Made by a program: the position numbers and the translations under genes
Part shown: in pieces, positions 27,517-43,120 of the stretch
Numbering within the stretch: position 1 is the first letter of the stretch
Layout: the number at the start of each line of letters is the position of its first letter
Source: Escherichia coli
Lineage (GTDB): Bacteria; Pseudomonadota; Gammaproteobacteria; Enterobacterales; Enterobacteriaceae
NCBI RefSeq assembly: GCF_003334765.1
Contig: NZ_QOWT01000001.1
Direction: 5' to 3' (one strand)
Length of the DNA: 64,000 nt
The notes under the pieces: generated by a model
Told to the model about the DNA's origin: nothing
Seen by the model: only the letters and a program-made list of their open reading frames with translations
Database searches by the model: none

Positions 27517-29163
27517 TTATTCAATCTCTTCACAGACATCCTGCGTTAAACGCCGCATAATATCTTTTCTTAACAAAAACTTTTGTATTTTACCTGAGGT
27601 AGTTCGCGGTAGTTTTTCGATTACCACGATATGTTCAGGATATTTATATTTTGCGACCCGTTTACGGCTAAAAAAAGCCACTACCTCTTCCAGCGATAAT
27701 GAATGATGCGGCGCTTTCAGCACGACATAAGCGCATGATCGTTCACCTAAACGTTCATCGGACATTGCAACCACACAGGCATCGTGAATTTTAGGATGCT
27801 GCAATAAAATATCTTCCACTTCACGGCTGCTAATATTTTCGCCGCCGCGGACAATAATATCTTTTTTGCGTCCGGTAATTTTTATATAGCCAGCCTCATC
27901 CATACGGCAGAGATCGCCGCTGTAATACCAGCCTTCTTCATCCAGGGCACGGGCGGTTAATTCAGGTTCATCAAAATACCCCATAAACACATTGGGGCCA
28001 CGCGAGGCTTCTTCACCTTCGCAACCTGGCGGTAAGGTCTTGCGTGCGTCATCGACCACTTTAATCTCTACACCTGCGGCAGCGTAACCATCGGTGTGCA
28101 TAAAGCGCGACAAAGGATCATCGAGATTCACCACCGCATGCGGCGAACTTTCTGTGGAACCATAAACACTTAATAATTTAATGCCGCGCTGCTGGCATTC
28201 ACGCGCCACTTTTTTGGGGATTGTGGTTCCGCCGCAAAGAAAGAAACGCAGCGCTGAAAGGTCCGCGGGTTGTTTCTCTAGTACATTCAAAAGATCATAG
28301 ACAAACGGCGTTGCGCCGAGCATACAGGTGCAACGCTGCTGCTCAAGCAGCGCGAGACACGCATCAGGAGTGAAAATATCTAACAACACGCTGCGAGCGC
28401 CAATTAAGAATGGTGCCGTTACGCCATGCAGAAAGCCCGTTGCGTGACCAAGTGGCGCAGGCATCATAAAGACATCCTGCCAGGTCAGATTCAGTCGCGC
28501 GCAATAAGCCCGCTCACTGGCGAGAATATTGTTATGCGTTAGCATCACGCCCTTTGGCAGACCCTCGGTTCCGGAGGTAAACAGCACCGCAGCTAATTCA
28601 TCGCCGTGGGTCGTTATCGCCGTGGTCAGTGAGGTATTGTCGGCGATAATCTGACTTAATGAGAGGGAAGAGGTGGCGGGAGCCAGTTTGTCCACGCCGA
28701 CAATTTGTTGTAGTTGTGGAAGCTGATTTTGCAGCGGCAGGATTAAATCTACCGGACGCGTTTGTTTAAACAACGTCGGTGCAAAGAACATTTTTGCCTG
28801 ACACTTATTGAGCACCCACACCAGTTCTGCTTCCCGCCAGGAAGGCAACAGCGGCACGGAAACTGCACCGATTTTCAGGCAGGCAAGATAGATAACGGTA
28901 AATTCACACCAGCCAGGCAGTTGAAATGCGATGCGATCGCCTGATTCAATACCCTTCGCTAACATCCAGTTTGCCAGACAGCTCGCGGCGTGATCGAGCG
29001 CGCTATAGGTGTACGATGCACCATGATTATCGACCACGGCAATTTTGTCTGGCATCGCACGAGCGGTCTGCTGCCAGTAATCGGCCAGCGAAGCATCGCC
29101 CCATAACCCTTGCTGACGATACGCCGCACGACGTTGTTCGTTAAACGTTAATGTCACTTTCAT
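27517..29163 (-). CDS. fadK: Short-chain acyl-CoA synthetase (AMP-forming), anaerobic
   Basis: ORF track 27517..29217; start at ATG 29163 (MKVTLTFNEQRRAAY...), 548 aa; AMP-binding motif TSGTEGLPKG. Confidence 0.93.
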   Translation of the reverse strand: MKVTLTFNEQRRAAYRQQGLWGDASLADYWQQTARAMPDKIAVVDNHGASYTYSALDHAASCLANWMLAKGIESGDRIAFQLPGWCEFTVIYLACLKIGAVSVPLLPSWREAELVWVLNKCQAKMFFAPTLFKQTRPVDLILPLQNQLPQLQQIVGVDKLAPATSSLSLSQIIADNTSLTTAITTHGDELAAVLFTSGTEGLPKGVMLTHNNILASERAYCARLNLTWQDVFMMPAPLGHATGFLHGVTAPFLIGARSVLLDIFTPDACLALLEQQRCTCMLGATPFVYDLLNVLEKQPADLSALRFFLCGGTTIPKKVARECQQRGIKLLSVYGSTESSPHAVVNLDDPLSRFMHTDGYAAAGVEIKVVDDARKTLPPGCEGEEASRGPNVFMGYFDEPELTARALDEEGWYYSGDLCRMDEAGYIKITGRKKDIIVRGGENISSREVEDILLQHPKIHDACVVAMSDERLGERSCAYVVLKAPHHSLSLEEVVAFFSRKRVAKYKYPEHIVVIEKLPRTTSGKIQKFLLRKDIMRRLTQDVCEEIE

Positions 29164-29219
29164 GTTGGACTCTCGAAACAGAACATCAGGCCCGAGATGC
29201 GGGCCTGTGGGATGCATGA

Positions 29220-29513
29220 TTAGCCGTAGCGAAAATCAATACCGAAGGTGCCTGCGGGATATTGCCACTGTTCGAGAATAGTGTTACCGCACAGCACCCG
29301 ACAGGTGCCGCACTCCAGACAACCGGCGGAATCAAAATGAATGTTTCCTGCGTCATCCTGCTTATAAAGTCCGGCAGGGCAGGCTTTCATTAATTTATGG
29401 AATTCATTGATATCGGGATTTTCCGCCAGAATGATATGCGGGTGGCCCTCATCAACATGGAATTTATTGACGCCTAATTTGATGTCGACGTTAACCGTAG
29501 CGTTCTGGCTCAT
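29220..29513 (-). CDS. ydiT: FixX-like ferredoxin
   Basis: 97-aa ORF with CxxCxxC cluster (CLECGTCRVLC). Confidence 0.9.
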   Translation of the reverse strand: MSQNATVNVDIKLGVNKFHVDEGHPHIILAENPDINEFHKLMKACPAGLYKQDDAGNIHFDSAGCLECGTCRVLCGNTILEQWQYPAGTFGIDFRYG

Positions 29514-30799
29514 AGCGCGGTTGCTCCCTTAATGCCATCTTTCAGCAAGTTGATCAGCCCAATTTTCTTCGCATGTCCCATGATCATTTTTCGTACCGGC
29601 TGGTTTGGTTTGCCGTCGATGGTGAACATCTCGTTCATGATGTCGGCTACCATTCGTGGGTATTGGCTAAACAGGCGCGGGTTTTCCATCAGCGCCGGGA
29701 TCTTGCGAAAATGCTGCATATCACGCATGACGCAGCTTTGTTCCAGCTCACGTTTGTATTGCGCCAGACTGCTGGCGGAGAAATCCGCGCGTTCTTTGGC
29801 GGCGATCACCGTTGTGGCGGCAGCCTGAGCCGATGCAATGGCTAAATCCATGCCGCGGACCGTAAAACCCAAATTCAGGCAGAAGCCTGCGGCGTCACCA
29901 ACGATCATCACGCCCTCGTTAACCAGTTGCGGCACCATTGCCAGACCGCCTTCCGGCACCATATGCGCGGAATATTCAAGCAGTTTGCCGCCGCTAATCA
30001 GCGGGCGAATGGCGGGGTGTTGTTTAAAATCTTCCAGCATTTGCGGCACGCTTTTTTGCGCATGGGCGATATCACCCAATCCACAAACCAGCCCCAAGGA
30101 TATGGAATCCTTGTTGGTATAGAGAAATCCCCCGCCCATCAGGCCGTCAGAAGGGGAACCGGCAAACAGCCAGGCGGCACCTTCCTCGCCCGTAATATTA
30201 AAGCGATCGTTGATCTGTTCTGGTGTGAGGCCAATAACCTCTTTAACACCAACAGCGTAATGATGCGGATCGGAAGCGGGAACCATTCCCAGCGAGCGGC
30301 CAAGCATCGAGTTAACGCCATCAGCCAGAATCACCACATTCGCTTCGAGAATATCATCCCCAGCCTGCACGCCAGTGACCTTGTTTCCTTCACGAACCAG
30401 CGCGTCGACGCGAACGCCTGGGATAAACTGCGCGCCCGCCTGCTCGGCTTGTTCCATCAACCACGGGTCCAGACGATTACGCAATACGGTATAAGATGCG
30501 TGTTGCGGAACATCTGGCTGCTCGCGGTGAAAATCGAGGGTAACGGCGCTTTCTTCGGTTAAGAAGGAGATTTTCTCGCGTGTGACCTTGCGTTCTACCG
30601 GCGCTGATACTGCAAAGCCTGGAATGATTGCTTCAAGTGTGTGGGCATAAAGACGCCCGCCGGTCATGTTTTTACATCCGGCACTGTCGCCGCGTTCTAT
30701 CACCAGGACATCCAGCCCGGCTCGTGCCATGACCAGTGCGGCAACGCTACCAGCAACGCCCGCACCGACCACAATGGCATCAAATTTGTCATCCGACAT
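29510..30799 (-). CDS. ydiS: FixC-like FAD-dependent ETF-quinone oxidoreductase
   Basis: 429-aa ORF; N-terminal GAGVAG dinucleotide-binding motif; 4-nt overlap with ydiT. Confidence 0.92.
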   Translation of the reverse strand: MSDDKFDAIVVGAGVAGSVAALVMARAGLDVLVIERGDSAGCKNMTGGRLYAHTLEAIIPGFAVSAPVERKVTREKISFLTEESAVTLDFHREQPDVPQHASYTVLRNRLDPWLMEQAEQAGAQFIPGVRVDALVREGNKVTGVQAGDDILEANVVILADGVNSMLGRSLGMVPASDPHHYAVGVKEVIGLTPEQINDRFNITGEEGAAWLFAGSPSDGLMGGGFLYTNKDSISLGLVCGLGDIAHAQKSVPQMLEDFKQHPAIRPLISGGKLLEYSAHMVPEGGLAMVPQLVNEGVMIVGDAAGFCLNLGFTVRGMDLAIASAQAAATTVIAAKERADFSASSLAQYKRELEQSCVMRDMQHFRKIPALMENPRLFSQYPRMVADIMNEMFTIDGKPNQPVRKMIMGHAKKIGLINLLKDGIKGATAL

Positions 30800-30854
30800 G
30801 CGTTATGCTCCCTTCCCGCTGCGTTTACAGCGGGAGATGTGGTTGAAAGGGGAA

Positions 30855-31793
30855 TTAGCGGCTCAACTGGCTAATCAGGGCAGGGACGACTTTGTAGATA
30901 TCGCCCACCAGACCGTAGTCGGCATAGTTGAAGATTGGCGCATTTTTATCTTTATTGATGGCGACAATCACTTTTGCGCCGTTGCCGCCAACCATATGCT
31001 GGATCTGCCCGGAGATCCCCAGCGTCAGGTAGAGATCGGATTTCAGCAACACGCCGGAGACACCGATATAACGTTCACGCTCCATCCAGTTCTCGCCTTC
31101 GGCAATTGGACGTGAACAGCCGACTTCAGCATTCAGCACCGCCGCCAGTTCGTGGACCATTTTTAGGTCATCCTGCGCCGCCAGTCCACGACCGACGCCA
31201 ACCACACGTTTTGCTTTGCTCAGGTCCACGCTGCTTGCGGCTTTCGCACGGCGTTCGCGACAGAGAATTTCATGACGCGGAGCAACATAAGGTACCGTTT
31301 CTGTCGGGCACTGATGAGAGGTATCACTGGTGCACGGTTCCTGAACACCGGGTGCAAGGGTAATGATCGCCAGCGGGCTGTTGATCTTTTCCTGAGCGAA
31401 CGCTAACCCGCCATACATCCGGTGTTCGGCGCAAATGTGACCATCGACAATATCCACCGCCGTGGCATCGTTCACCAGCGCCGCATTCAGTTGCACACTT
31501 AACCGTGCTGCCAGCGCTTTACCACGTTTCGTCGCGGCCAACAGCAACATAGCGGGGTGTTTATCTTTCAGCAGGGCAGCAATGCTTTCGGCGTAATTTT
31601 CAGTGCGTTGCAGCGCGTCGTTTTGCGCAAGAACATAAAGACATTTTGGACCATAAGGCATAACTGCCTGCGCCTGGTCGGTATTTTGTACAATGGCATA
31701 CACCTGTTGGCCCCATTGCTGAGCGCCGCCAAACAGTTCAGCATAACGTTCAGGATTATCGCTAAAGACCCAGACGCTGTTTAATTGACTCAT
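30855..31793 (-). CDS. ydiR: Electron-transfer flavoprotein alpha-subunit homologue (FixB-like)
   Basis: 312-aa ORF. Confidence 0.92.
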   Translation of the reverse strand: MSQLNSVWVFSDNPERYAELFGGAQQWGQQVYAIVQNTDQAQAVMPYGPKCLYVLAQNDALQRTENYAESIAALLKDKHPAMLLLAATKRGKALAARLSVQLNAALVNDATAVDIVDGHICAEHRMYGGLAFAQEKINSPLAIITLAPGVQEPCTSDTSHQCPTETVPYVAPRHEILCRERRAKAASSVDLSKAKRVVGVGRGLAAQDDLKMVHELAAVLNAEVGCSRPIAEGENWMERERYIGVSGVLLKSDLYLTLGISGQIQHMVGGNGAKVIVAINKDKNAPIFNYADYGLVGDIYKVVPALISQLSR

Positions 31794-31812
31794 CGTTTCT
31801 TCTCCGTAGGCT

Positions 31813-32577
31813 TCAGTTCAGGGCTTTCTTCAGATGTTCCGCCAGCTCGGCAATGGCCTCCGGCGAATCGTTATCGATAATGATGTGCTTACGTTCTGTT
31901 TGCGGCGGTACGCGAATGCCGACCAGTTCAGCAAGTGGCGCGCTCTGGCTCCAGTCAATATCACTTGCCTGCCACTGATTTACCGGTTTTTTACCCGCGC
32001 CGAGAATGGCTTTCATCGAAGGAATGCGTGGCACGTTAATATCGGAGGTGACGCAGAGCACGGCTGGAACAGAGAGTTCAATAACTTCAACATCATCTTC
32101 AAGCGTGCGTTCAATCACCAGTGTATTGCCCTGACGCTGAATAGCACTCACTGCATTAATCACCGGAAGTTGCAGAATTTCTCCGACCAGCAAGCCAACC
32201 TGCTGGGCATAAAGGTCGCCGGAACCTTCACCAAAGATCAGTAAATCGAAGCCGATCTTTTCAATTGCTGCCGCCAGCGCTTTTGCGGTATCGAGAGGCA
32301 GTGCATGTTCAAGTTGCGCATCCTGCACCAAATACAGGCTGTGCGGCCCGCGGGATAGCACGTCTTTGCGCACTTTCGAGTTCTGCAACAATGAGCCGCC
32401 AACGGTCAGCGCGGCTATCTCATCGTCATCTGTTGCGAGCTGGCTTGCAGCTTCAATGGCATTGAGATCGAACTGGCTGATTTTGGCGTCGGCATTGTCG
32501 AAATTCAGGGTGTATTCTGGAGTGACAACAATGTCCTGTTCTTCAGGCACCAGCTTAAAGCAGGTTATTATTTTCAT
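31813..32577 (-). CDS. ydiQ: Electron-transfer flavoprotein beta-subunit homologue (FixA-like)
   Basis: ORF track 31813..32676; start at ATG 32577 (MKIITCFKLVPEEQD...), 254 aa. Confidence 0.92.
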   Translation of the reverse strand: MKIITCFKLVPEEQDIVVTPEYTLNFDNADAKISQFDLNAIEAASQLATDDDEIAALTVGGSLLQNSKVRKDVLSRGPHSLYLVQDAQLEHALPLDTAKALAAAIEKIGFDLLIFGEGSGDLYAQQVGLLVGEILQLPVINAVSAIQRQGNTLVIERTLEDDVEVIELSVPAVLCVTSDINVPRIPSMKAILGAGKKPVNQWQASDIDWSQSAPLAELVGIRVPPQTERKHIIIDNDSPEAIAELAEHLKKALN

Positions 32578-32892
32578 GATTTCTCCTGTGAGTCGCATAC
32601 GGAACCATCTCCGATGGAAGGTAAAAATGGCCTGAAAATAGTGTGCGATAGCGGTGCGGGGTTTTCGACGGAGCAAGCTGTTTTCCTTGCCAACAATCTT
32701 GCAAAAAAAATGCGATCGCTAAAACAAAAGTGCAATTTGCGGCAATATAGTTATTCCATGACCGTACAATCTTGCATTCAGTGTAAATAATCTTGTTTAG
32801 CTCTCGCTAAACGCGGTTGTATAACCGCAATACACGCCGTATTTTATCCGGCATATATTGTTTTTGCTTGCTCATGGAATAGGGAGGTTGTC

Positions 32893-33804
32893 ATGTATCA
32901 ACGCTGTTTTGATAACGCCAGTGAAACGCTGTTTGTCGCCGGTAAAACGCCACGGCTTTCACGTTTTGCATTTAGCGATGATCCAAAATGGGAGTCCGGA
33001 CATCACGTTCATGACAATGAAACCGAGTTGATTTACGTCAAGAAAGGGGTTGCAAGGTTTACCATCGATTCTTCGTTATATGTCGCACATGCGGATGACA
33101 TTGTGGTGATAGAACGCGGCAGGCTGCATGCGGTGGCCTCTGACGTTAACGATCCGGCAACGACGTGTACCTGTGCGCTGTACGGCTTTCAGTTTCAGGG
33201 GGCTGAGGAAAATCAGCTACTGCAACCGCATTCTTGTCCGGTAATTGCCGCGGGGCAGGGAAAAGAAGTCATAAAAACCTTATTTAATGAGCTAAGTGTG
33301 ATTTTGCCGCAAAGTAAAAATAGCCAAACATCTTCGTTATGGGATGCATTTGCCTATACGTTAGCCATTCTTTACTACGAAAATTTTAAAAATGCTTATC
33401 GTTCGGAGCAGGGGTATATTAAAAAAGATGTTCTGATAAAAGATATTCTTTTCTATCTGAATAATAATTATCGCGAAAAAATCACTTTAGAACAGTTATC
33501 GAAAAAATTTCGTGCCAGCGTCAGTTATATTTGCCATGAATTTACCAAAGAGTATCGTATTTCCCCTATTAACTATGTTATTCAACGGCGTATGACGGAA
33601 GCAAAATGGTCACTCACTAATACTGAATTATCACAGGCAGAGATCTCCTGGCGTGTGGGTTATGAAAATGTCGATCACTTTGCCAAACTGTTTTTGCGCC
33701 ATGTCGGTTGTTCGCCCAGCGATTACCGTAGACAATTTAAAAACTGTTTTGCGGAACAAGAAATCCTATCTGAATTTCCTCAACCGGTAAGTCTTGTTGG
33801 ATAA
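32893..33804 (+). CDS. ydiP: AraC-family transcriptional regulator (cupin N-domain plus HTH)
   Basis: 303-aa ORF; C-terminal AraC HTH (ISWRVGYENVDHFAKLFLRHVGCSPSDYRR). Confidence 0.9.
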   Translation: MYQRCFDNASETLFVAGKTPRLSRFAFSDDPKWESGHHVHDNETELIYVKKGVARFTIDSSLYVAHADDIVVIERGRLHAVASDVNDPATTCTCALYGFQFQGAEENQLLQPHSCPVIAAGQGKEVIKTLFNELSVILPQSKNSQTSSLWDAFAYTLAILYYENFKNAYRSEQGYIKKDVLIKDILFYLNNNYREKITLEQLSKKFRASVSYICHEFTKEYRISPINYVIQRRMTEAKWSLTNTELSQAEISWRVGYENVDHFAKLFLRHVGCSPSDYRRQFKNCFAEQEILSEFPQPVSLVG

Positions 33805-33846
33805 ATCTGGCGGCGCAGTTTGTTAAGAAGCTGCGCCGCCTGCAGA

Positions 33847-34998
33847 TTATTTGTTCTGATAGTCTTTCAGGATCTGCCGACCTGCTACGTAAATCATAAT
33901 TTCGTCTGTACCGCCGCCGATACGTTCACAACGGACATCACGCCAGAAGCGGGAGACGCGCGCCTCATCGGTATAGCCCAGACCGCCCATGATTTGAATC
34001 GCATCATCAATGACTTCCATTGCGGTACGTGCACAGTACAGTTTTGCCAGCGCCGCGCTGGTGCGCAGTGACTGATGCTGATCGGCTTGCCATGCCACTT
34101 TCAGCACCATGTTGCGCATGTTGTCGATCTTAATCGCCATCAGCGCCAGTTTTTCCTGGATCATCTGGTTATGACCAATGGGCTTACCAAAAGCGATACG
34201 TTGGTTGGCATAGCGGGCGGCATCTTCAAAGGCGCATTCGGCAAAGCCGGTGCTGCGCGCGGCGTTGATCAGGCGCTCCATCTCAAAGTTGTACATCACA
34301 TTGAGGAAACCCATTCCTTCTTCGCCCACCATGTCGCTCTCTTCAACCTCCACGTTGTCGAGATAGACTTCGCAGGTGCTGAGCATATGCCAGCCGATTT
34401 TATGCAGCGGGTTAATCTTAATGCCGGGCTTACTGGAGTCGACCCACCACAGGGTGAAGGCTTTTTTGGGATCTTTCGGTTGCGGATCGCGCGCCAGCAC
34501 CAGCATATACGGGTACTCTTTCGCACCGGTAATAAAGGTTTTTTGTCCGTTGATGTAGACCTTGCCGTTTTTACGCGTGTAAGTGGTAGTGGCACTGTTG
34601 TTATCTGAGCCAGCACCTGGTTCCGTCAACGCCAGGGCATAGGCGGGATCACCCGTTTCCAGGGTGCTCTCTGCCGTTTTACGTAGCTGCTCTGCAGAAC
34701 CGAAACGGCGCATACTGTGAATACATTGACCGTTGGTAATTAAAAATGCCGGAGCACCGCATTTTGACACTTCCATCAGCGCCAGCATTTGGGTGACGTA
34801 ATCCGCAGGGATACCACCAAATTCTTCCGGCACGCCAAGCATGGAAATACCGTTATCCGCCAGCGCCCGCATAAACTCACGCGGATATGTCCCGTTTTGA
34901 TCGCAGGTGCGGAAATACTCTTCCGGAAAGTTAGTCGTAATCAGTTCGCGAATACTGGCCAGCAGCAGTTCTTGTTCTTCAGTTAAAGAAAAATCCAT
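33847..34998 (-). CDS. ydiO: Acyl-CoA dehydrogenase
   Basis: ORF track 33847..35052; start at ATG 34998 (MDFSLTEEQELL...), 383 aa. Confidence 0.92.
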   Translation of the reverse strand: MDFSLTEEQELLLASIRELITTNFPEEYFRTCDQNGTYPREFMRALADNGISMLGVPEEFGGIPADYVTQMLALMEVSKCGAPAFLITNGQCIHSMRRFGSAEQLRKTAESTLETGDPAYALALTEPGAGSDNNSATTTYTRKNGKVYINGQKTFITGAKEYPYMLVLARDPQPKDPKKAFTLWWVDSSKPGIKINPLHKIGWHMLSTCEVYLDNVEVEESDMVGEEGMGFLNVMYNFEMERLINAARSTGFAECAFEDAARYANQRIAFGKPIGHNQMIQEKLALMAIKIDNMRNMVLKVAWQADQHQSLRTSAALAKLYCARTAMEVIDDAIQIMGGLGYTDEARVSRFWRDVRCERIGGGTDEIMIYVAGRQILKDYQNK

Positions 34999-35011
34999 CA
35001 TTATACTCCTG

Positions 35012-36607
35012 TTAATGAGCCGCTTCAGGCAGGACAAAACCCATCGCCGCATCGATAAATAATCTTTCGTCCATCAGTTTGAGTTCTGGCGAAATCACTG
35101 GGGTGAAATCCATTTTGTCGAGAATATCTTTTTGTAAATCGACGCCAGGGGCGATTTCGATTAAATGCAGGCCGTCTTCTTTCAGCGTGAATACTGCGCG
35201 CTCAGTGATATAACGAACATCCAGCCCTCGCTCGAGAGCGATTTTTCCGCTGAAAGTAATTTCCGGTAGTTCCCGAATAAATTTCTTCACCCGTCCTTCC
35301 TGGACGATATTTAATTTGCCGTCGGTAATTTCTGTTTTTAAACTGCCCGCAGTTAATGTGCCGCAGAAAATGATTTTCTTCGAAGTGGCACTGATATCAA
35401 TAAATCCACCGGTGCCCATGATTTTACCATTGAATTTATGCACGCCGACGTTACCGTGCTGGTCGACTTCAGCAAAACTCAAATAACAAACATCCAGACC
35501 GCCACCGTGATAAAAATCAAACTGGGACGTCATATCCAGAATGGCACGGGTATTCACGTTCGCGCCAAAGGCGATCCCCTGTGAAGTAATTCCGCCAATC
35601 GGACCTGTTTCTACCGTCAGAATAAAGTCATCAGCACAACCTTCTTCTCGGGCGACCAGGCCAATGCCGTCAGCAATACCGACGCCGACATTCCCCACCG
35701 CGCCTTTACGCATTTCGAATAATGCGCGCCGCGCAACTAATTTACGTTGGTTTAGGGGCAGGCTAAGTTTGGTACTGTCATCAAGGGTGAAGTCACCAGA
35801 AATAAAGCGGTTAACCGGTGCACCGCCATACAGTTGGGTTTGATCCGGATCGACCACCACAATATCCACCAGATAACCCGGAATACGGACAGATTTAGGA
35901 TGCAGCGTGGCTTTCTTAACCATTTTCTGCACCTGCATCATCACAATACCGCCGTTATTGTGCACCGCCTGGGCAATAACCAATGCGTCGAGATACATCA
36001 CCTCATCTTCAAAAGTGGCGTAGCCTTCACTGTCGCAGGTGGTAGCGCGAATGAAGGCAATATCTGGCGCAATCGCTTTGTAATAGAGATATTCTTTGTT
36101 ATCAAACTCGACCAGTTTAATCAGGTCTTCTTTAGTGACTTCATTCAGTTTGCCGCCTTGCTGGCGTGGATCGACAAATGTCCCGATGCCAATATCACTA
36201 ATAATACCAGGCTGGTGGGCTGCGGCGGCGCGTAAGGTTTGTGTAAGTACACCTTGTGGGTAGTTATAAGCAATAATTTTATTTTGTTCTGCGAGTTCAG
36301 AAATACGCGGCGATTGTCCCCAGTGACCACATAATGCCCATTTCACCAGACCTTCTTGCGCCAGAGGACTAATACCACGGTCGGCGCGATCGCCAAGCCC
36401 TGTTGGACTAATAATCGATAAATTACGTGGTGTTTGAGTCTGTTTATATTTATCAGCAAGAGCAGTAATTAACGTGGTGGCTTCCAGAATACCGCCTCCA
36501 GCGCCTAACACACAAAGTGTTGCTTCGTCGGGAATATAATTCACCGCTTCCTGTGCCGACAGGACCGGCACTCGTCCATTAATACGAGGTGGTTTTACAG
36601 GTTTCAT
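35012..36607 (-). CDS. ydiF: Family I CoA-transferase (fused alpha/beta; acetate/short-chain acyl-CoA)
   Basis: 531-aa ORF. Confidence 0.92.
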   Translation of the reverse strand: MKPVKPPRINGRVPVLSAQEAVNYIPDEATLCVLGAGGGILEATTLITALADKYKQTQTPRNLSIISPTGLGDRADRGISPLAQEGLVKWALCGHWGQSPRISELAEQNKIIAYNYPQGVLTQTLRAAAAHQPGIISDIGIGTFVDPRQQGGKLNEVTKEDLIKLVEFDNKEYLYYKAIAPDIAFIRATTCDSEGYATFEDEVMYLDALVIAQAVHNNGGIVMMQVQKMVKKATLHPKSVRIPGYLVDIVVVDPDQTQLYGGAPVNRFISGDFTLDDSTKLSLPLNQRKLVARRALFEMRKGAVGNVGVGIADGIGLVAREEGCADDFILTVETGPIGGITSQGIAFGANVNTRAILDMTSQFDFYHGGGLDVCYLSFAEVDQHGNVGVHKFNGKIMGTGGFIDISATSKKIIFCGTLTAGSLKTEITDGKLNIVQEGRVKKFIRELPEITFSGKIALERGLDVRYITERAVFTLKEDGLHLIEIAPGVDLQKDILDKMDFTPVISPELKLMDERLFIDAAMGFVLPEAAH

Positions 36608-36749
36608 TGTTAATTCCTGATTCAGATGTGATTTTCCCTACGCCAAATGGAGAATTAGCGCACAGAGACTCACGAAATATTTTTATTAAATACGATTGAA
36701 TATATTTTTTAGTTCGGCGGGGAGGGTGTTCCCGCCGAAATATTATTGC

Positions 36750-37508
36750 TTATGCCTGGTGTAAAATAGTTAATACCGTGCGCAAATCATTTACCGAGAT
36801 TTGCCCTGGCGCAGACGCTTTTTTTACCGCACCAAAAGTTGCCGCCGAGCCAAATACTTCACCAGCCAGACGAGAAATTACGCCAGTTTTTGCCATCGAC
36901 ATCGTGATAATTGGACGATCGGCATACTGCTCCTGCATCTCCAGGGTCGCGGCAAGCAACGTCAGCACATCGCTGGTACTTTGCGGCATCAGCGCAATCT
37001 TAGGAATATCGGCGTCGAAGGATTGCATTTTGCGCAGACGGGCAATGATTTCTTCGGCTTCCGGCGTTTTATGGAAGTCATGGTTGGACATGACTACTTT
37101 CACATCATGCGCGTGGGCGTAGGCGACGGTTTCTTTAACCTGATCATCACCGGTAAATAACTCCAGATCGATCATATCAACCAGGCCGCTGTCGATGGCT
37201 GCACGATTGAGTGCAATATAAGCCTCGGTGGAAATCGCCTGCTCGCCGCCTTCTTTGGCACTGCGGAAGGTAAACAGCAGCGGTTTTTCTGGCATGGTCT
37301 CACGGAGAATTTTTGCTGCCGCCATGACAGACTCCACATTGGAGAGGTCGGCATAGTGGTCCACACGCCATTCCAGAATATCAAAGTCCGCTTCACGATA
37401 GGCGAGAGCTTCGGATTTCACGCTGGCGATATCTTTCGCCATCAGCGAGACGATGATTTTAGGTGCGCCCGTACCAATGACGAGATCTTTTACAGTTACG
37501 GTTTTCAT
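36750..37508 (-). CDS. aroD: Type I 3-dehydroquinate dehydratase
   Basis: 252-aa [30 protein letters not shown]. Confidence 0.97.
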
Positions 37509-37538
37509 TTTTTACCCTTTCTGCACGCGGTCAGCCTG

Positions 37539-38405
37539 TCAGGCACCGAACCCCATGACCTGTTTAACATATTCCAGAGGGAAATCTTTGCCAGTCCATA
37601 ATGTGAACTGTTCAGCCCCTTGCCACAACAACATGCCGTATCCATCAATCGTTTTGCAACCAGCTTGTTGCGCCTGCTGCAATAACTTCGTCATATGCGG
37701 GTTATACACGCATTCAGTGACCAGAAGTCCCGGATGTAACAGACTGATATCATTAACCAATGATTCATTCTCAAGGGGTTTCATACCCACTTTTGTGCCA
37801 TTGGTTAAAATGTCGGCGGAAGCCAGGGCTTCAGCAAAGGCTTGCTGATCGGCGAGATCGGTGACCGTGACGACACAATCGGTGTTTTCATTAACCCGCT
37901 GCGCGAAGGCGAGGGCTTTATCGAAGAACTCATCCCGACGGTTAAAGAGTTTAATTTCTTTTAAACCTTCAATTGCCCCCTGCGCGCCAATTGCCGTTGA
38001 GGCACCACCGGCCCCTAACAGCACCATCGTTTTGCCTTTGATATCAAAACCGCTCTCTTTAATGGCGCGAATATGGCCCGTGCCGTCGGTGTTATAGCCA
38101 CGCAGATAGCCATCATCATTAACGATGGTGTTGATGGCCCCCACCAGTTTGGCAGCTGGTGTTAATTCATCAACATATTCACACGCCAGTTGTTTGTTCG
38201 GCATCGATACACCAGTTCCGCGCATTTTGAGGGCTTTTAATCCTTCAATTGCTCCAGGAAAGCTATCGTTATCCACTTCGAAGGCCATATAGGTAAATGG
38301 CAATCCCGCTTTTTCTAAGGCTTTATTCTGCATTTCGGGCGATAAACTGTGGCGGATAGGATAGGCCATCAACCCAATCAATTCGTATTTTGCGGTAACA
38401 TCCAT
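37539..38405 (-). CDS. ydiB: Quinate/shikimate dehydrogenase (NAD(P))
   Basis: 288-aa ORF; AroE-like fold with GAGGAS Rossmann motif. Confidence 0.95.
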
Positions 38406-38416
38406 AATTAACTCCT

Positions 38417-39682
38417 TTAACCTCTATGCTTAATTGTGTTTAACCGGGTGCAAAATTTACGCTCGCCAAACCGCACATCATTTTCAGGAATAATGAAAAC
38501 GCGGTAATAGCGGATAAAAACAATAATTGCGGTAATCAGGGCCAGCAGCGCGAAAGTAAAATCGAGAACAATGATATATTGCAGGCCGATGTTCGACAGA
38601 TAACCGGTAATCAGTGGAATAACAAAGTTAGCCAGTCCACCCATCATCATATAAATACTGGTGACTTTGGCTTTGCTTTTGGGAAAAAACTCTGACATGA
38701 CCGAAACGCCGAGCTGTAAAATGCCGCCAGCTGCTGAGAAACCGATAACAAAGGCTCCGGCATTGCACACCAGTGGAGAAGGGTACAGGTAGATAATGGC
38801 TGCTGTTATTGTTGCCAGTGCAGAGTTAAATACATTAGCCCAGATGGGCCGGACCATTTTTTTCAGTAGTGCGGCAAAAATAAAGACACAGACCAACGAG
38901 CCCATACTGTAATAAGAGATGGTTTTTAATGCCTCAGCTTCTGACATACCAGCAAAAGCCATCGCATATTTGGGCATCCACACCACAATCACATAAAAGG
39001 TCGAGAATGCGGCTACACCGAACAGTACCGATGAAACACCTTCCAGCCAGACTAACGGTTTGCTGTTCATTTGCGGTAATTCATTAGTTACGCTGGCGTC
39101 CACCAACTGGCTGGGGAATTTGCTTTTCAACAGCATCAGCGTGATCAGTACAAATAGAATACCCGGAATAATCAGCCCATAGCCGTACCAGATATTATTG
39201 AGCAACATATAGCTCACCAGCATTGGGTAGAACATTTGCCCAAATGACACCATCGCTTTAACCAGTATGACCGCCGAACCAGAGGCTTTCGGAAAGCATT
39301 CCATGAGCGCGGGGTAGCCACCCGTATCCAGCGCTGAGTTAGCGATACCTACGCACACTGCCAGACCGTAGGCGAGAGTTAAATTCGGGCAAGCGGGAAT
39401 ACCAAAGAAGAATAGCAGATACATTATTACTGCCATTAATATCACCGCCCGACGACCAAACTTATCGGAGATCACACCGAAGAATAAAATACTGATCAAT
39501 CGCCCCAAACCGATACCGGAAATTAAGTAGGCAATGCCCGCGTTGTCAGTGGAAAACTTTTCCGCCAGAGATGACATATTTTGGGCAAGCGTAATAACAC
39601 TAATGCCGTGCAGGAAGTAGCTGAAGTAAATACAAAGAACAGCCAGGATAAATGGCGTGCTGAAAGCCTTATTTTGAGACAT
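38417..39682 (-). CDS. ydiN: MFS transporter
   Basis: ORF track 38417..39688 begins at GTG; first ATG at 39682 (MSQNKAF...), 421 aa, 12-TM-like. Confidence 0.88.
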
Positions 39683-39908
39683 TTTCACAGCTCCTTGCTG
39701 AAAGATAATTTCGTTACCGTACGTATTGTTCTCCGACGGTTTACATAATTACTATACTGAAGATGATTTTCCCTGGGTACATGGCATAAAGTTTATGTTT
39801 CCAGGAATATTGCATGTCATAGTTTGTTTTTGATCGCGATTTTCCTTAGTTAGCGCAGAAAGAGTTATTTATCCGTAAGATCTTGCATGACCTGAAAAGA
39901 ATATTGCA

Positions 39909-41123
39909 TTACCCACCCGGAGCGACATTTTCCTTTAGCGAGTGATGCCGCGTTTTTTTGCGGCTGCGTAAGCCGATAAACAGTGCCAGTAAAAAACCGA
40001 TGGCAGCGATGGCGGTATCGAACCACATAATATCGGCAATACTTCTTTGGGACAGATGAGCCGTAATCAACGGAATAGTAAAGGTCGCAATACTGCCCGC
40101 ACTGTAATAGATCCCTGTAGCTTTACCTTTAGCGTAAGGGAAACGTTCAGCCATTAACGTCAGGCCAATTTGCACAACACCTCCAGCAGAGGTAAAACCA
40201 ATGACAAAAGCAAATATTATCACCACATAAAATGTGGGATGCAGGCAGACGGTAAACAGAGCAATAAATGAGATAAAGGTGTACAGCATCAGTAATGTTG
40301 TTGGGCGAACGGTATTACGAATGAGTGGAGCGGTAATAAATACACAAAGCAGCGAACCCACGGTGTAGATACTGAGTAGTTTGATCGACATAGTGTATGA
40401 CATGCCTGCAACAAATTGTCCGTACTGTGCCAGCCACTGGCTAACCAGATAAAACGTTGCCATTGAGATATAGCCATATAAGGTATAACTGGCTAAATCG
40501 ATAATTGAACAGCGATGTTCCGTAGAGCTGGTGGTTTTCTTTATGACAGGTAAGCGACGACCCGGATGGGGTGGGAACGTACAACGGTATAAAAACAGAG
40601 CGTTAATAAACATAATGCCTGCAGCAATCATAAAGGACCAACCGAACCACAGTTCAGCCCACACTAACAGGCTAATGATTAGCGGTAATAAAAATTGTCC
40701 GCTGGAAACAAATGCTTTAATTAAAATATTGGCTGTCCCAGGTGAGCGTGGAAAAGCTTCCATCAAACTGGGATAAGTGCCTGCATCGAGAAAACTGTTT
40801 GCCATTCCCGCCAGAAAGCCAAAAACATAAGCGATAATGATGTTATTGGTCTGCAGGATGCCAAAAAAGAAGGCCATATAGCAGCACATCCCGAGCATGA
40901 TAAAAGGGCGGCGACCAAAGCGATCGGATAATAATCCTGCAAAAAGCAAGACACTTAATCGACCAATGCCCAGCGATGAGATAACTATCGAGACACCCGC
41001 GGCATTAGTCTGCCAAAGTGTCTCCAGCGAGGCCATATTCAGGCTCATCAAAAGGACGCCCATACCATGCACCAGGTAATTAAAATACAACCCAAGTGCG
41101 GTAGGGAAATAGGGATTTTTCAT
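39909..41123 (-). CDS. ydiM: MFS transporter
   Basis: 404-aa polytopic ORF. Confidence 0.9.
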   Translation of the reverse strand: MKNPYFPTALGLYFNYLVHGMGVLLMSLNMASLETLWQTNAAGVSIVISSLGIGRLSVLLFAGLLSDRFGRRPFIMLGMCCYMAFFFGILQTNNIIIAYVFGFLAGMANSFLDAGTYPSLMEAFPRSPGTANILIKAFVSSGQFLLPLIISLLVWAELWFGWSFMIAAGIMFINALFLYRCTFPPHPGRRLPVIKKTTSSTEHRCSIIDLASYTLYGYISMATFYLVSQWLAQYGQFVAGMSYTMSIKLLSIYTVGSLLCVFITAPLIRNTVRPTTLLMLYTFISFIALFTVCLHPTFYVVIIFAFVIGFTSAGGVVQIGLTLMAERFPYAKGKATGIYYSAGSIATFTIPLITAHLSQRSIADIMWFDTAIAAIGFLLALFIGLRSRKKTRHHSLKENVAPGG

Positions 41124-41222
41124 AGGTTCTACTTAGCAAAGGTGCTTTAAAAAGTGAAGCGATGTTGTGTCAGCATCCGTTCATTATTGTTGTAACAACG
41201 ACAATTCCTTTCTGTGGAAAAA

Positions 41223-41579
41223 TTAACAAAGCCGCTCCAGATCGTGTGCATATAATTCAGCAGCTACCGATTGATAGATCTTCCAGTCAATAAAATTGCC
41301 ATCAGGGTAGACTCGTTGAAATGCGGTTAAGTCGGGGAAAAAACGCATGGTGTTGTTGCCGATGCGGTTATTTATTTTCTCTATGATGGCATGAAGATGT
41401 TTTTTTCTTTGCTGACGCATAGCCAACAGTTGCTCGACTACACGATCAGGAATGGCACACTTGCCATTTTCCCACTGACGCCAGCTTTCACTGTCACCGG
41501 TCTGGGCAATCCAGGTCGCGCATTCATCAATAGTCATGGCAAAAATATGGCGGAGTGCCTGGAGTTCATAAGCGTTCAT
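41223..41579 (-). CDS. ydiL: Uncharacterised protein YdiL
   Basis: ORF track 41223..41606; start at ATG 41579 (MNAYELQALRHIF...), 118 aa. Confidence 0.8.
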   Translation of the reverse strand: MNAYELQALRHIFAMTIDECATWIAQTGDSESWRQWENGKCAIPDRVVEQLLAMRQQRKKHLHAIIEKINNRIGNNTMRFFPDLTAFQRVYPDGNFIDWKIYQSVAAELYAHDLERLC

Positions 41580-41716
41580 CGTGTAATGGCTGCATGAAAT
41601 AAACAATAAAATATAAATAACATTATCAGCCTGCTGACGGCTTGAAGAGAGTCACAGTATCTTGTGCAACATTATTGGAAAGAGTGAGGGGCGAGGTAGC
41701 GAAGCGGAAAAATGTT

Positions 41717-41822
41717 AAAAAAAAGCCCATCGTGGGAGATGGGCAAAGACTACACACAGCAATTCGTTGTTTCACTCAGGGGATTTCCATGCTTATAAAT
41801 CAATATGTTGATTTATAACCGT
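41717..41822 (-). ncRNA. rprA: RprA small regulatory RNA (RpoS translational activator)
   Basis: Reverse complement reads ACGGTTATAAATCAACATATTGATTTATAAGCATGGAAATCCCCTGAGTGAAACAACGAATTGCTGTGTGTAGTCTTTGCCCATCTCCCACGATGGGCTTTTTTTT, recognised as RprA including its terminator. Confidence 0.9.
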
Positions 41823-41875
41823 GAGCTAATAGTAGGCATACGGACTTTTTGCGTCGATCAGATTCGTCTCATTAG
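41823..41875 (-). promoter_or_regulatory. rprA promoter region (RcsB-dependent in K-12)
   Basis: Position immediately upstream of the rprA 5' end; -10-like tactat on minus strand. Confidence 0.5.
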
Positions 41876-42007
41876 TTTAAAAACTGTAAAGAATTTGCGA
41901 CAGGTACTACCAGCTGAATGGCGGTAAGCAGGAAAATATGGGGAAGAGCAAGCAAATATCAATTAGCGGTGGTTAACAATCAGGCGGCAGAGCCGCCTGA
42001 TGAGAAA

Positions 42008-43120
42008 TTACTTATTCGGTTTCTCGATTTCGCCAAGTTCTTCGAGAATTTCTTCCGGTTGGTCCGTCGGCGGCGGGACTTCTTCCACCCACGCGGCAAA
42101 CAGACGCCAGGAAACGGCTAACAGAACCGGACCAATAAACAGACCGATCATCCCGAAAGCAATCAAACCACCAATAACGCCAGAGAGAATCAGGATCAGC
42201 GGTAAATCGGCACCCATGCGAATTAACATTGGGCGGATGACGTTATCCAGCGTGCCAACCACACCGCTCCACACTAACAATACCGTTCCCCAGGTGGTAT
42301 CGCCAGTCCAGTAGAGCCAGATAATCGCCGGAATCAGTACCGGCAACGGGCCAAGCTGGACAAGGCAGGAGAGGATCATTAACACCGTTAGCAACGTTGC
42401 ATAAGGTACGCCGGATACGGCGAGGCCGATACCGCCAAGCACTGCCTGTACTAACGCCGTCACCACCACACCCAGCGCCACCGCGCGGATAGCCTGTGCC
42501 GCCAGCAGCACGGCGGCATCTCCGCGAACGCCTGCCAGACGGGTTGCAAAATGGCGAATGCCTTGTGCCACCTGTTCACCGCGCCAGTACAGCAGGGCAC
42601 TGAAGAGAAGCATCAGCGCACAATGCACCATAAAGCGCCCGATATGCGCCGCCTGCCCAACGAACCAGGTGGTGGTGGTGCCAATATAAGGGCGGACTTT
42701 CGCCATGATCGCCGTCCCCCCCATATCCAGCAAGTTGTGCCAGCCTGCATACAGCTTCGCGCCAATCACCGGAATGGTATTAAGCCACGCCAGATCGGGT
42801 AACGTCATGTCACCGCTGGAAATGGCTTTAATTAGCGGGCCGCTGCCGTCGACGATACTGTTAACCAGCAAAGCAATAGGGATGATAAACACCATCACTA
42901 ATAACAGCGTCATCACCAGAACGGCGAGAGAGCGGCGGCCAAACATGATCTTTTGCAAACGTAACAATACCGGCCAGGTGGCGATAACCACCGTACCGGC
43001 CCATGCAAAGCCGAGAATAAAGGGTTGAACAATCCACAGACATGCCACAATCATGATGGCTAAAAACAGCACCGAAAGCAGAATTTGTGCGACATCCCTG
43101 GGCTGACGAACATTTACCAT
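42008..43120 (-). CDS. ydiK: AI-2E/UPF0118-family membrane transporter
   Basis: 370-aa polytopic ORF; SD AGGTGA upstream of ATG. Confidence 0.9.
   Translation of the reverse strand: MVNVRQPRDVAQILLSVLFLAIMIVACLWIVQPFILGFAWAGTVVIATWPVLLRLQKIMFGRRSLAVLVMTLLLVMVFIIPIALLVNSIVDGSGPLIKAISSGDMTLPDLAWLNTIPVIGAKLYAGWHNLLDMGGTAIMAKVRPYIGTTTTWFVGQAAHIGRFMVHCALMLLFSALLYWRGEQVAQGIRHFATRLAGVRGDAAVLLAAQAIRAVALGVVVTALVQAVLGGIGLAVSGVPYATLLTVLMILSCLVQLGPLPVLIPAIIWLYWTGDTTWGTVLLVWSGVVGTLDNVIRPMLIRMGADLPLILILSGVIGGLIAFGMIGLFIGPVLLAVSWRLFAAWVEEVPPPTDQPEEILEELGEIEKPNK

Follow-up and report, generated by a model that had tools for sequence, protein, structure and literature searches.

The ydiM-ydiN intergenic region

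In a 64-kb stretch of Escherichia coli DNA (contig NZ_QOWT01000001.1; the whole stretch is called the window hereafter) the spacer between ydiM and ydiN carries an 11-bp direct repeat, GAATATTGCAT. Comparison with other enterobacteria suggests that this repeat is most likely the E. coli-visible part of a conserved operator array, and that the array has most likely gone unrecognised until now; we found no paper that assigns a regulator or an operator to the ydiM-ydiN spacer, or to ydiN or ydiQ. The genes of interest in the window lie on the minus strand, and those around the repeat are as follows:

ydiM, 39909-41123, minus strand: open reading frame (ORF) with its stop codon at 39909-39911
ydiN, 38417-39682 (start at 39682), minus strand: MFS transporter (ORF and RefSeq annotation)
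ydiB, 37539-38405, minus strand: quinate/shikimate dehydrogenase (ORF and RefSeq annotation)
aroD, 36750-37508, minus strand: 3-dehydroquinate dehydratase (ORF and RefSeq annotation)
ydiN, ydiB and aroD together, 36750-39682, minus strand: presumed regulated unit (short gaps, reported co-induction)

The gap between ydiN and ydiB is 11 bp and that between ydiB and aroD is 30 bp. The three genes were reported to be co-induced in shikimate-accumulating, carbon-limited cells and on shikimate (PMC4585142, PMC2672614). The short gaps and the co-induction back the suggestion of the initial annotation that an operator of ydiN may also serve ydiB and aroD.

Both copies of GAATATTGCAT are exact and were correctly placed inside the ydiM-ydiN spacer: they lie on the plus strand at 39805-39815 and 39899-39909, 94 bp apart, and the RefSeq annotation of 5,325 E. 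coli genomes concurs. The third core that had been described, TTGCATG, is present as well, though its true span is 39883-39889; the span first given, 39884-39889, was off by one and covers TGCATG. Read in the orientation of the genes, the copies are ATGCAATATTC, CATGCAAGATC and ATGCAATATTC. As had been stated, the second copy reaches into the ydiM stop codon; the two share a single base, and this overlap is incidental, since the stop codon lies further upstream in Citrobacter and Kosakonia.

The bare 11-mer repeat is weakly unusual. When the 229-bp region was shuffled 5,000 times with its dinucleotides preserved, 0.6% of the shuffles contained an exact non-overlapping repeat of at least 11 bases, and the window holds six direct-repeat pairs of at least 11 bases within 120 bp, against 1.5 expected. 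With six such pairs in 64 kb any scan will meet one, and therefore the repeat alone would not justify a claim. It is the conservation and the recurrence of the element, described below, that exceed chance. Four further exact direct repeats of 11-12 bases, at most 120 bp apart, lie at 4569/4611, 13462/13498, 15015/15111 and 16436/16454 (CACTTTGGGTA, CTGAATGCGCGT, GTGCTGCTCGA, AGTTGGCGTAAA).

Box structure and conservation upstream of ydiN

The proposal of an unassigned operator for ydiN is backed by the comparative data, which favour a regulatory element for a binding protein: it is found at 40 of 40 loci, holds a 21/22-bp register and stays with ydiN. The same data indicate that the proposal needs refining: the unit appears to be a longer asymmetric box and not the 11-mer, the boxes appear to be four in two modules and not three copies, and the element is not private to ydiN, as it occurs also at ydiP/ydiQ and ydiL. 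The features upstream of ydiN are the following:

39897-39908, minus strand: box 1 of module A, TGCAATATTCTT; holds the second repeat copy
39876-39887, minus strand: box 2 of module A, TGCAAGATCTTA; same orientation as box 1 and 21 bp downstream of it, holds the TTGCATG core
39797-39814, minus strand: box 3 of module B, TGCAATATTCCTGGAAAC, consensus TGCAAnAnnnnTGGnAAC; holds the first repeat copy
39777-39793, minus strand: box 4, putative degenerate partner of box 3, AACTTTATGCCATGTAC; conserved AAAC...AT...AyGTA
39751-39756, minus strand: predicted ydiN -10 hexamer, TATAGT; TAnAnT in all genera

In the orientation of the genes the box has the core TGCAAnAT, and weaker conserved positions extend out to about 14-18 bp. 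Module A consists of box 1 (TGCAAyATTnTT) and box 2 (TGCAAnATA), arranged as direct repeats in a 21/22-bp register, and module B consists of box 3 (TGCAAnAnnnnTGGnAAC) and the degenerate box 4, which lies 21 bp further on. The step from box 2 down to box 3 is 73 bp, and that from box 3 to the ydiN ATG is 132 bp. Dyad symmetry is lacking: TGCAA occupies positions 1-5, the further conserved positions are 7-9 and 11-14 (TT, T..G, TGG), and box 3 has an additional conserved AAC at positions 16-18. Among 39 distinct sequences, 10 of the 12 positions of box 1 reach 1.7-2.0 bits. The identity of the 11-mer copies is specific to Escherichia, and elsewhere box 1 and box 3 differ past position 8.

The loci were collected by a YdiN peptide-pattern scan of a species-representative genome collection, which gave 44 loci, 40 of them including the upstream region; the scan did not recover the locus of Salmonella, which is for this reason missing from the alignments. 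The core TGCAAnAT upstream of ydiN is unchanged in all 40 loci, which come from at least 10 genera, while the flanks diverge. In alignment A1, which comprises 18 sequences of Escherichia, Citrobacter, Kosakonia and Intestinirhabdus, three invariant TGCAA-AT cores and further unchanged patches stand amid diverged sequence, and the cores are likewise invariant in 13 sequences from Yersinia, Serratia, Brenneria, Symbiopectobacterium, Prodigiosinella and others (alignment A2). Box 1 and box 2 keep the same orientation throughout, with a register of 21 bp in 35 loci and 22 bp in the other 5, and the spacer between them is variable and G+C-rich. Box 3 is kept in Escherichia, Citrobacter, Kosakonia, Yersinia, Serratia, Brenneria and others. 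The mean column identity amounts to 0.87-0.95 in the boxes versus 0.62 in the remainder of the spacer. Among six divergent E. coli strains the sole single-nucleotide polymorphism (SNP) inside a box falls on the degenerate position 10 of box 1 (window 39899).

In Escherichia, Citrobacter, Intestinirhabdus and Kosakonia the two modules stand 73, 74 or 84 bp apart, measured from box 2 to box 3, which corresponds to 7 or 8 helical turns, and the distance is 260-370 bp at ydiN in distant genera. Box 4 has the conserved columns AAAC, AT and AyGTA with a mean column identity of 0.87, and we infer that it is a half-site from its 21-bp register and from the AACAA-type box 1' found at ydiP/ydiQ (see below). 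Columns of the type GTAtAnTAAT, resembling a -10 element, are also conserved and sit at a fixed distance after the block of box 3 and box 4. If the conserved TAnAnT is taken as the predicted -10, box 4 would span approximately -49 to -33 and would abut the -35 region. The predicted ydiN promoter has no recognisable -35, and a consensus scan of the coding strands gave no sigma-70 consensus promoter at ydiN, ydiP/ydiQ or ydiL. This absence at ydiN, ydiQ and ydiL fits a dependence on an activator. No terminators were found on the coding strands at ydiN, ydiP/ydiQ and ydiL.

The cluster ydiN-ydiB-aroD-ydiF-ydiO-ydiP(-)-ydiQRST-fadK keeps its synteny in each of the eight lineages inspected. In two of these (L033/L047 and L034/L058) ydiM, ydiL and a gene for a LysR-type regulator are not nearby, and both modules are still located upstream of ydiN. 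Since the modules are found upstream of ydiN whichever gene precedes it, they belong to ydiN and not to ydiM. The gene for the LysR-type regulator was found between ydiM and ydiN at these positions:

L022, 1479-2378, minus strand: LysR gene
L024, 1124-2026, minus strand: LysR gene
L046, 8124-9026, minus strand: LysR gene

Some of the public assemblies showed peculiarities. A 285-bp contig labelled Alkalicoccobacillus porphyridii (L045) is 100% identical to the N-terminus of E. coli YdiN, and an assembly bearing an alphaproteobacterial name, Martelella alba (L033/L047), carries an enterobacterial-type ydi cluster; both labels are probably due to contamination or mislabelling. In L047 ydiP is split into two ORFs (13506-14425; 240 and 66 residues) with all boxes retained, and fragmented matches were obtained for ydiN in L035 and for ydiM and ydiN in L044. 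These broken genes could be frameshifts, pseudogenes or assembly errors.

Recurrence at ydiP/ydiQ and ydiL

The element recurs at three promoters of one cluster. Three exact copies of the 12-mer TGCAANATTNTT are present in the window: in box 1, in the ydiP-ydiQ spacer (32692-32703) and, inverted, upstream of ydiL (41665-41676). The corresponding features are listed below:

32893-33804, plus strand: ydiP, AraC/XylS-family regulator, candidate box-binding protein
32765-32797, minus strand: module A' of the ydiP-ydiQ spacer; distance to the ydiP ATG about 96 bp
32786-32797, minus strand: box 1' of module A', AACAAGATTATT
32765-32776, minus strand: box 2' of module A', TGCAAGATTGTA
32686-32703, minus strand: box 3' of module B', TGCAAGATTGTTGGCAAG, followed by GAAAAC; exact 12-mer match
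41665-41676, plus strand: box S0, TGCAACATTATT; inverted with respect to ydiL, centre about 91 bp upstream of the ydiL ATG (41579)

The arrangement at ydiP/ydiQ repeats that at ydiN: AACAAGATTATT-N9-TGCAAGATTGTA has the 21-bp register, and box 3' (TGCAAGATTGTTGGCAAGGAAAAC) follows box 2' after 73 bp and precedes the ydiQ ATG (32577) by 126 bp. Both modules of this spacer are invariant, and the register of box 1' and box 2' is kept, in E. coli, Citrobacter, Kosakonia, Serratia, Brenneria, Yersinia, L047 and L058, and the block TTTTTTGCAAGATnnTTnGnAAnnAAAAC at ydiQ is invariant in seven genera (alignment A3). Outside the modules this spacer varies in length and cannot be aligned; the distance between its modules ranges from 73 to about 350 bp, and that from module A' to the ydiP start codon from about 27 to 230 bp across lineages. 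A site for FNR, TTGACGTAAATCAA, was predicted from chromatin immunoprecipitation on microarrays (ChIP-chip) for 'ydiP/ydiQ' (PMC1802558). It corresponds to window 33028-33041 on the minus strand and falls within the ydiP coding sequence, not in the ydiP-ydiQ spacer.

At ydiL, box S0 is contained in a 38-bp block (41641-41678) that is invariant in 27 loci. The same block holds a CRP-like site, TGTGACTCTCTTCAAG, at 41641-41656, whose centre precedes TGtTATTTA (41614-41622) by 29.5 bp, as in a class II CRP promoter that has an extended -10. A further sequence, CACAAGATAC, overlaps S0 and resembles a forward box.

The recurrence was confirmed with a matrix that had been trained solely on ydiN boxes from outside Escherichia and was used to score 127,974 positions of the window. 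S0 ranked first, followed by box 3, box 3' and box 1, and box 2' ranked sixth; S0 and the ydiP/ydiQ boxes are outside the training set. Under the background model about 0.3 matches of at least 16 bits are expected per window. The initial annotation had named a motif search of the K-12 genome as a check. Single boxes elsewhere in K-12 occurred at about the chance rate, whereas over 214 kb of K-12 DNA pairs with the 21/22-bp register were found solely at ydiN and ydiP/ydiQ. Since single boxes occur at about the chance rate, a genome-wide count of the single motif would look random; it is the composite that is specific.

Two single matches deserve mention in their own right. The box TGCAACATTGTTTT (15.4 bits) is located in the citC-dpiB spacer of K-12, 6 bp before the dpiB start (NC_000913.3, 652229-652242; L061), lacks a registered partner and is probably due to chance. 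A weaker match of 11.5 bits, AGCAATAATATTTC, is found directly past the aroD stop codon in the aroD-ydiF spacer (window 36737-36750, minus strand) and could be a weak extra site or chance; the same spacer of Citrobacter and Brenneria contains box-like sequences at other positions and in other orientations.

YdiP as the candidate regulator

The distribution of the boxes was compared with that of the regulator genes near them. In the eight lineages ydiP is always present in the cluster, divergent from ydiQ and with both modules in their shared spacer; ydiL and ydiM adjoin the cluster in six of them and the LysR gene is found in three. L047 and L058 keep ydiP together with all modules, and ydiL, ydiM and the LysR gene are not nearby. 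Thus the boxes accompany the cluster even without these other genes, which suggests an AraC/XylS-style operator, probably for YdiP, and the occurrence of the element also at ydiP/ydiQ and ydiL points to the same protein. YdiP has Pfam matches to AraC_binding, Cupin_2 and HTH_18, that is, an AraC-type cupin ligand domain and a double helix-turn-helix at the C-terminus, with the DNA-binding domain at residues 202-281. Its NCBIfam matches (AraC, RhaS and HpaA-like) are all below the cut-off; the AraC match scores 59 bits against a cut-off of 208. Taken together, we regard it as reasonably probable that the boxes form an AraC/XylS-style operator and that this operator is YdiP's.

Several observations weigh against this assignment, and the published binding data come first among them. 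In the ChIP-exo experiment on ydiP-8myc in glucose M9 five weak sites were reported, at sdhC, uxaB, secG, cspA and yihQ (PMC8464067), and the ChIP-seq experiment on YdiP-FLAG3 at 15 degrees C was read as cold-shock regulation (csiP), YdiP being assigned there to cold-shock genes instead (PMC9283627). Neither of these two data sets lists a YdiP peak in the ydi cluster, be it at ydiN, ydiQ or ydiL (PMC8464067; PMC9283627 Supplementary Data 12). The boxes themselves also show some irregularities. The E. coli copy of box 2 is a weak match of 7.0 bits, box 4 is likewise a weak match, S0 is inverted and unpaired, and no S0 was found upstream of ydiL in Yersinia and Brenneria. At ydiQ the spacing between box 3' and the predicted -10 exceeds the corresponding spacing of box 3 at ydiN by 5 bp. 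Single boxes of at least 14 bits elsewhere number 4 in 150 kb of K-12 DNA against about 2.7 expected, which is close to chance.

The negative ChIP results were given limited weight because the tag of one of the sets, and possibly of both, is placed beside the DNA-binding domain, the conditions were non-inducing and one of the sets looks hyper-ChIPable; even so, they keep the assignment to YdiP at reasonably probable and no higher. The FLAG3 tag is C-terminal (PMC9283627), and the 8myc tag, of a strain given simply as ydiP-8myc, is possibly C-terminal too (PMC8464067). As the DNA-binding domain of YdiP is at the C-terminus, a C-terminal tag could impair binding. The ChIP-seq peaks are 0.8-22 kb wide and fall mostly on tRNA, rRNA, lpp, ompC, dnaK, ibpA and rpsL (PMC9283627 Supplementary Data 12), and such a pattern is typical of highly expressed, hyper-ChIPable loci. 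In addition, a matrix scan of 150 kb of K-12 DNA around cspA, cspE and shiA found no strong box near any of these three genes. The csiP cold-shock assignment may need re-examination.

Alternative explanations

Operators of YdiL, of CytR or of a LysR-type activator, an RNA structure and chance were each judged less likely than an operator of YdiP. One would argue that the boxes are YdiL operators, with S0 responsible for autoregulation and the other boxes for the control of ydiN and ydiQ. YdiL (window 41223-41579, minus strand) is a helix-turn-helix protein and a full-length member of the Pfam family Aca2_YdiL (PF08965; PDB 1s4k), and its homologue Aca2, the anti-CRISPR-associated phage relative of the chromosomal YdiL, is a DNA-binding repressor (PMC8434428). 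Moreover, S0, the top-scoring box of the window, lies in the ydiL promoter within the 38-bp invariant block, and ydiL adjoins the cluster in six of the eight lineages. However, L047 and L058 keep every module and contain no ydiL in the 5-7 kb upstream or the 10 kb downstream, and in Yersinia and Brenneria ydiL is present but S0 is not. The inverted repeats bound by Aca2 dimers are short, TTCG-N6/8-CGAA (PMC6765145), whereas the boxes are asymmetric direct repeats 21 bp apart. The modules are found in the control region of ydiP and not around ydiL, and S0 is placed upstream of the predicted ydiL -10, not over it as in an Aca2-type operator. YdiL is thus an unlikely owner of the boxes. A still less probable owner is CytR, which would anti-activate CRP-dependent ydi promoters. 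The CytR consensus, TGCAA-N2-3-TTGCA or the octamers GTTGCATT/AATGCAAC, shares the pentamer TGCAA with boxes 1-3, 2', 3' and S0, box 1 of E. albertii and Serratia equals AATGCAAC, and in vitro CytR also accepts direct repeats and spacers as long as two or three helical turns (PMC3454398). The position of S0 beside the CRP-like TGTGACTCTCTTCAAG at class II distance and the rise of ydiN, ydiB and aroD under carbon limitation would also agree with CytR. Against this, no conserved tandem pairs of CRP sites (TGTGA/TCACA) flank modules A or B at ydiN or ydiQ, and the one CRP-like site seen is at the ydiL promoter alone. The extension past the pentamer (ATTnTT, TGGnAAC, AAAC) is not CytR-like and the AA 5' of the octamer is not conserved. 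The comparative study of the CytR regulon does not report ydi genes (PMC3454398). Furthermore, the strong sites concentrate at one cluster that has its own regulator and no evident functional tie to nucleosides.

A third candidate is the LysR gene that stands next to ydiN in some genera. It encodes a protein of 299-300 residues with HTH_1 and LysR_substrate domains and is transcribed divergently to ydiN in Yersinia, Serratia, Brenneria and Symbiopectobacterium, and its start is 115-300 bp away from module A. Control of quinate/shikimate clusters by LysR regulators is known from Corynebacterium and Listeria, which also speaks for such a regulator. The boxes would then be sites of a divergent QsuR/QuiR-like activator and in E. 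coli would be relics or be used by a paralogue. However, Escherichia, Citrobacter, Kosakonia and Intestinirhabdus, in which the boxes are invariant, have no such gene between ydiM and ydiN, L047 and L058, which keep the boxes, lack it as well, and blastn found no DNA homologue of the Serratia gene in 5,426 E. coli genomes. The protein reaches no NCBIfam equivalog cut-off, the boxes show no conserved interrupted dyad of the T-N11-A type, and the same modules are present at ydiP/ydiQ, far from the LysR gene; we consider this explanation distinctly improbable. It could also be that the conserved sequences act as RNA, for example as a leader, a riboswitch, a small RNA or an element of the ydiM 3' untranslated region (UTR). 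The region is probably in part transcribed, either as the ydiN 5' UTR or by read-through from ydiM, after which there is no terminator-like site. Nevertheless, apart from RprA no Rfam match with E <=1 was obtained over 38000-43000, the folding energy is ordinary (z-score +0.21), and the boxes are direct repeats and not complementary. The distance between the modules ranges from 73 to about 370 bp, the modules are upstream of the predicted -10 and in Yersinia another gene separates module A from ydiM, which makes a function as RNA highly improbable. The explanation that we credit least is a functionless chance repeat in an A+T-rich spacer. The six repeats of at least 11 bases within 120 bp and the chance rate of single-box matches elsewhere are what one would expect of it, but it fails to account for cores that are invariant in 40 of 40 loci from at least 10 genera at a fixed register, for the recurrence of sites on which the matrix was not trained and for E. 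coli SNPs that avoid the boxes. To our knowledge, none of the sites for TyrR, PurR/LacI-type regulators, ARG, mar/sox/rob, RcsAB, LytTR, FeaR or sigma-54 (-24/-12) agrees with the boxes in spacing or in conserved positions.

Possible mechanism and metabolic role

If the boxes are indeed an operator for YdiP, the following mechanism could be envisaged. A ligand-responsive dimer of the AraC/XylS family, most likely YdiP, would bind each pair of boxes with one subunit per box. Occupation of boxes 3 and 4 would recruit RNA polymerase to the weak promoters of ydiN-ydiB-aroD and ydiQRST-fadK, and module A would serve as an auxiliary upstream site that acts together with module B via cooperative contact or DNA looping. 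At ydiP, module A may also overlap the promoter region of the regulator itself and thereby mediate autoregulation. The effector would probably be a hydroaromatic acid (shikimate, quinate) or a derivative.

The gene content of the cluster allows a guess about its metabolic role. Among the second-best NCBIfam matches (window 27517-36607) are CaiA for YdiO, FixA/B/C/X for YdiQRST and a cyclohexanecarboxylate-CoA (coenzyme A) ligase for FadK, and YdiO also matches cyclohexanecarboxyl-CoA dehydrogenases. From these matches ydiF, ydiO, ydiQRST and fadK look like a reductive CoA pathway of the cai/fix type that stands beside quinate/shikimate enzymes. In Serratia and Brenneria a shikimate-kinase (SKI) gene directly follows ydiL (L050, 5847-6731; L051, 5540-6472), which is a further tie between the ydi cluster and shikimate. 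It could be that the boxes define a YdiP regulon, so far unrecognised, which joins ydiN-ydiB-aroD, ydiF-ydiO, ydiQRST-fadK and ydiL-ydiM in a cai/fix-like anaerobic pathway for hydroaromatic (cyclohexene-carboxylate) acids, a notion that we put forward tentatively and regard as rather doubtful. If it is true, ydiN-ydiB-aroD would provide the uptake and the oxidation or dehydration of quinate or shikimate, ydiF-ydiO and ydiQRST-fadK would contribute a CoA-transferase, a CaiA-like acyl-CoA dehydrogenase, FixABCX-like electron-transfer proteins and a CoA ligase, enterobacteria would activate a hydroaromatic acid to its CoA ester and then reduce it, and the published cold-shock assignment would miss the primary targets of YdiP.

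About a dozen neighbouring E. coli genes (ydiL, ydiM, ydiN, ydiB, ydiF, ydiO, ydiP, ydiQRST, fadK) have no established role or regulator. Some of them are of practical interest: ydiB, aroD and ydiN are important in strains that produce shikimate, and the engineering of reversed beta-oxidation makes use of ydiO and ydiQRST. A deeply conserved operator common to the genes of the ydi cluster predicts one pathway for them and offers a cheap experimental handle, with mutable boxes, a named candidate regulator, two promoters and candidate inducers. The boxes also provide a sequence check on cold shock, the sole published function of YdiP, the binding data of which contain none of them.

Comparison with known systems

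Among the known systems, the sites of CytR resemble the boxes in the TGCAA pentamer, in the direct or inverted arrangement with spacers of one to three helical turns and in the strong conservation of orthologous sites together with a weak cross-gene consensus (PMC3454398). The differences are that ydiN and ydiQ are without flanking tandem CRP sites, that the extension of the box is another one and that the sites are found at one locus. The clusters governed by QsuR in Corynebacterium and QuiR in Listeria likewise combine, as is generally known, an MFS transporter, a quinate/shikimate dehydrogenase and a dehydroquinate dehydratase, and a LysR gene stands beside ydiN in Yersinia and Serratia. 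Nevertheless, E. coli and other box-bearing genera have no LysR gene here, and the boxes are not dyads and occur also at ydiQ. A parallel of another kind is offered by CaiF and the cai/fix operons, in which, as in our proposal, one activator governs the operons for a transporter, a CoA-transferase/ligase, an acyl-CoA dehydrogenase/reductase and FixABCX. In that case the family of the regulator is different and the quinate/shikimate enzymes have no cai/fix counterpart.

The closest likeness is to the operators of AraC and XylS. The repeats used by AraC at araI1-I2 and by XylS at Pm are direct, have a 21-bp register and cover the -35 with the proximal copy, and the half-site of XylS is TGCA-N6-GGNTA, present as direct repeats 21 bp apart, its effectors being aromatic carboxylic acids. 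The ydi boxes share with the XylS-Pm system a half-site that starts with TGCA, a second conserved patch about one helical turn further on (TGG in box 3, T/G in boxes 1 and 2), and direct repeats in the 21-bp register, the proximal one of which would lie over the -35 if the predicted -10 holds; the aromatic acids that act as effectors of XylS have their parallel in the hydroaromatic-acid cluster considered here. Unlike in Pm, the second patch at N6-8 is TGGnAAC and not GGNTA, an additional upstream module is present, and the system is a chromosomal enterobacterial cluster and not part of the TOL plasmid. With the well-known arrangement of AraC sites (araI1-I2, araO1, araO2) the ydi sites have in common asymmetric boxes of about 17 bp as direct repeats in a 21-bp register, a proximal pair that, in the ydi case, would reach the -35 position of a predicted promoter without a good -35, and an extra upstream pair at a variable distance, as looping would allow. 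The regulator gene is divergent from the target operon with sites in the shared spacer in both cases, and YdiP has the cupin ligand domain and the C-terminal double helix-turn-helix of AraC. On the other hand, the sequence of the boxes is different, the ydi sites are distributed over two target promoters 7 kb apart and ydiL, and YdiP, with 59 bits against the 208 required, is a candidate binder and no AraC equivalog. Thus the element of the ydi cluster resembles an operator of the AraC/XylS type and appears to have those features of such operators that could be tested at the level of the sequence.

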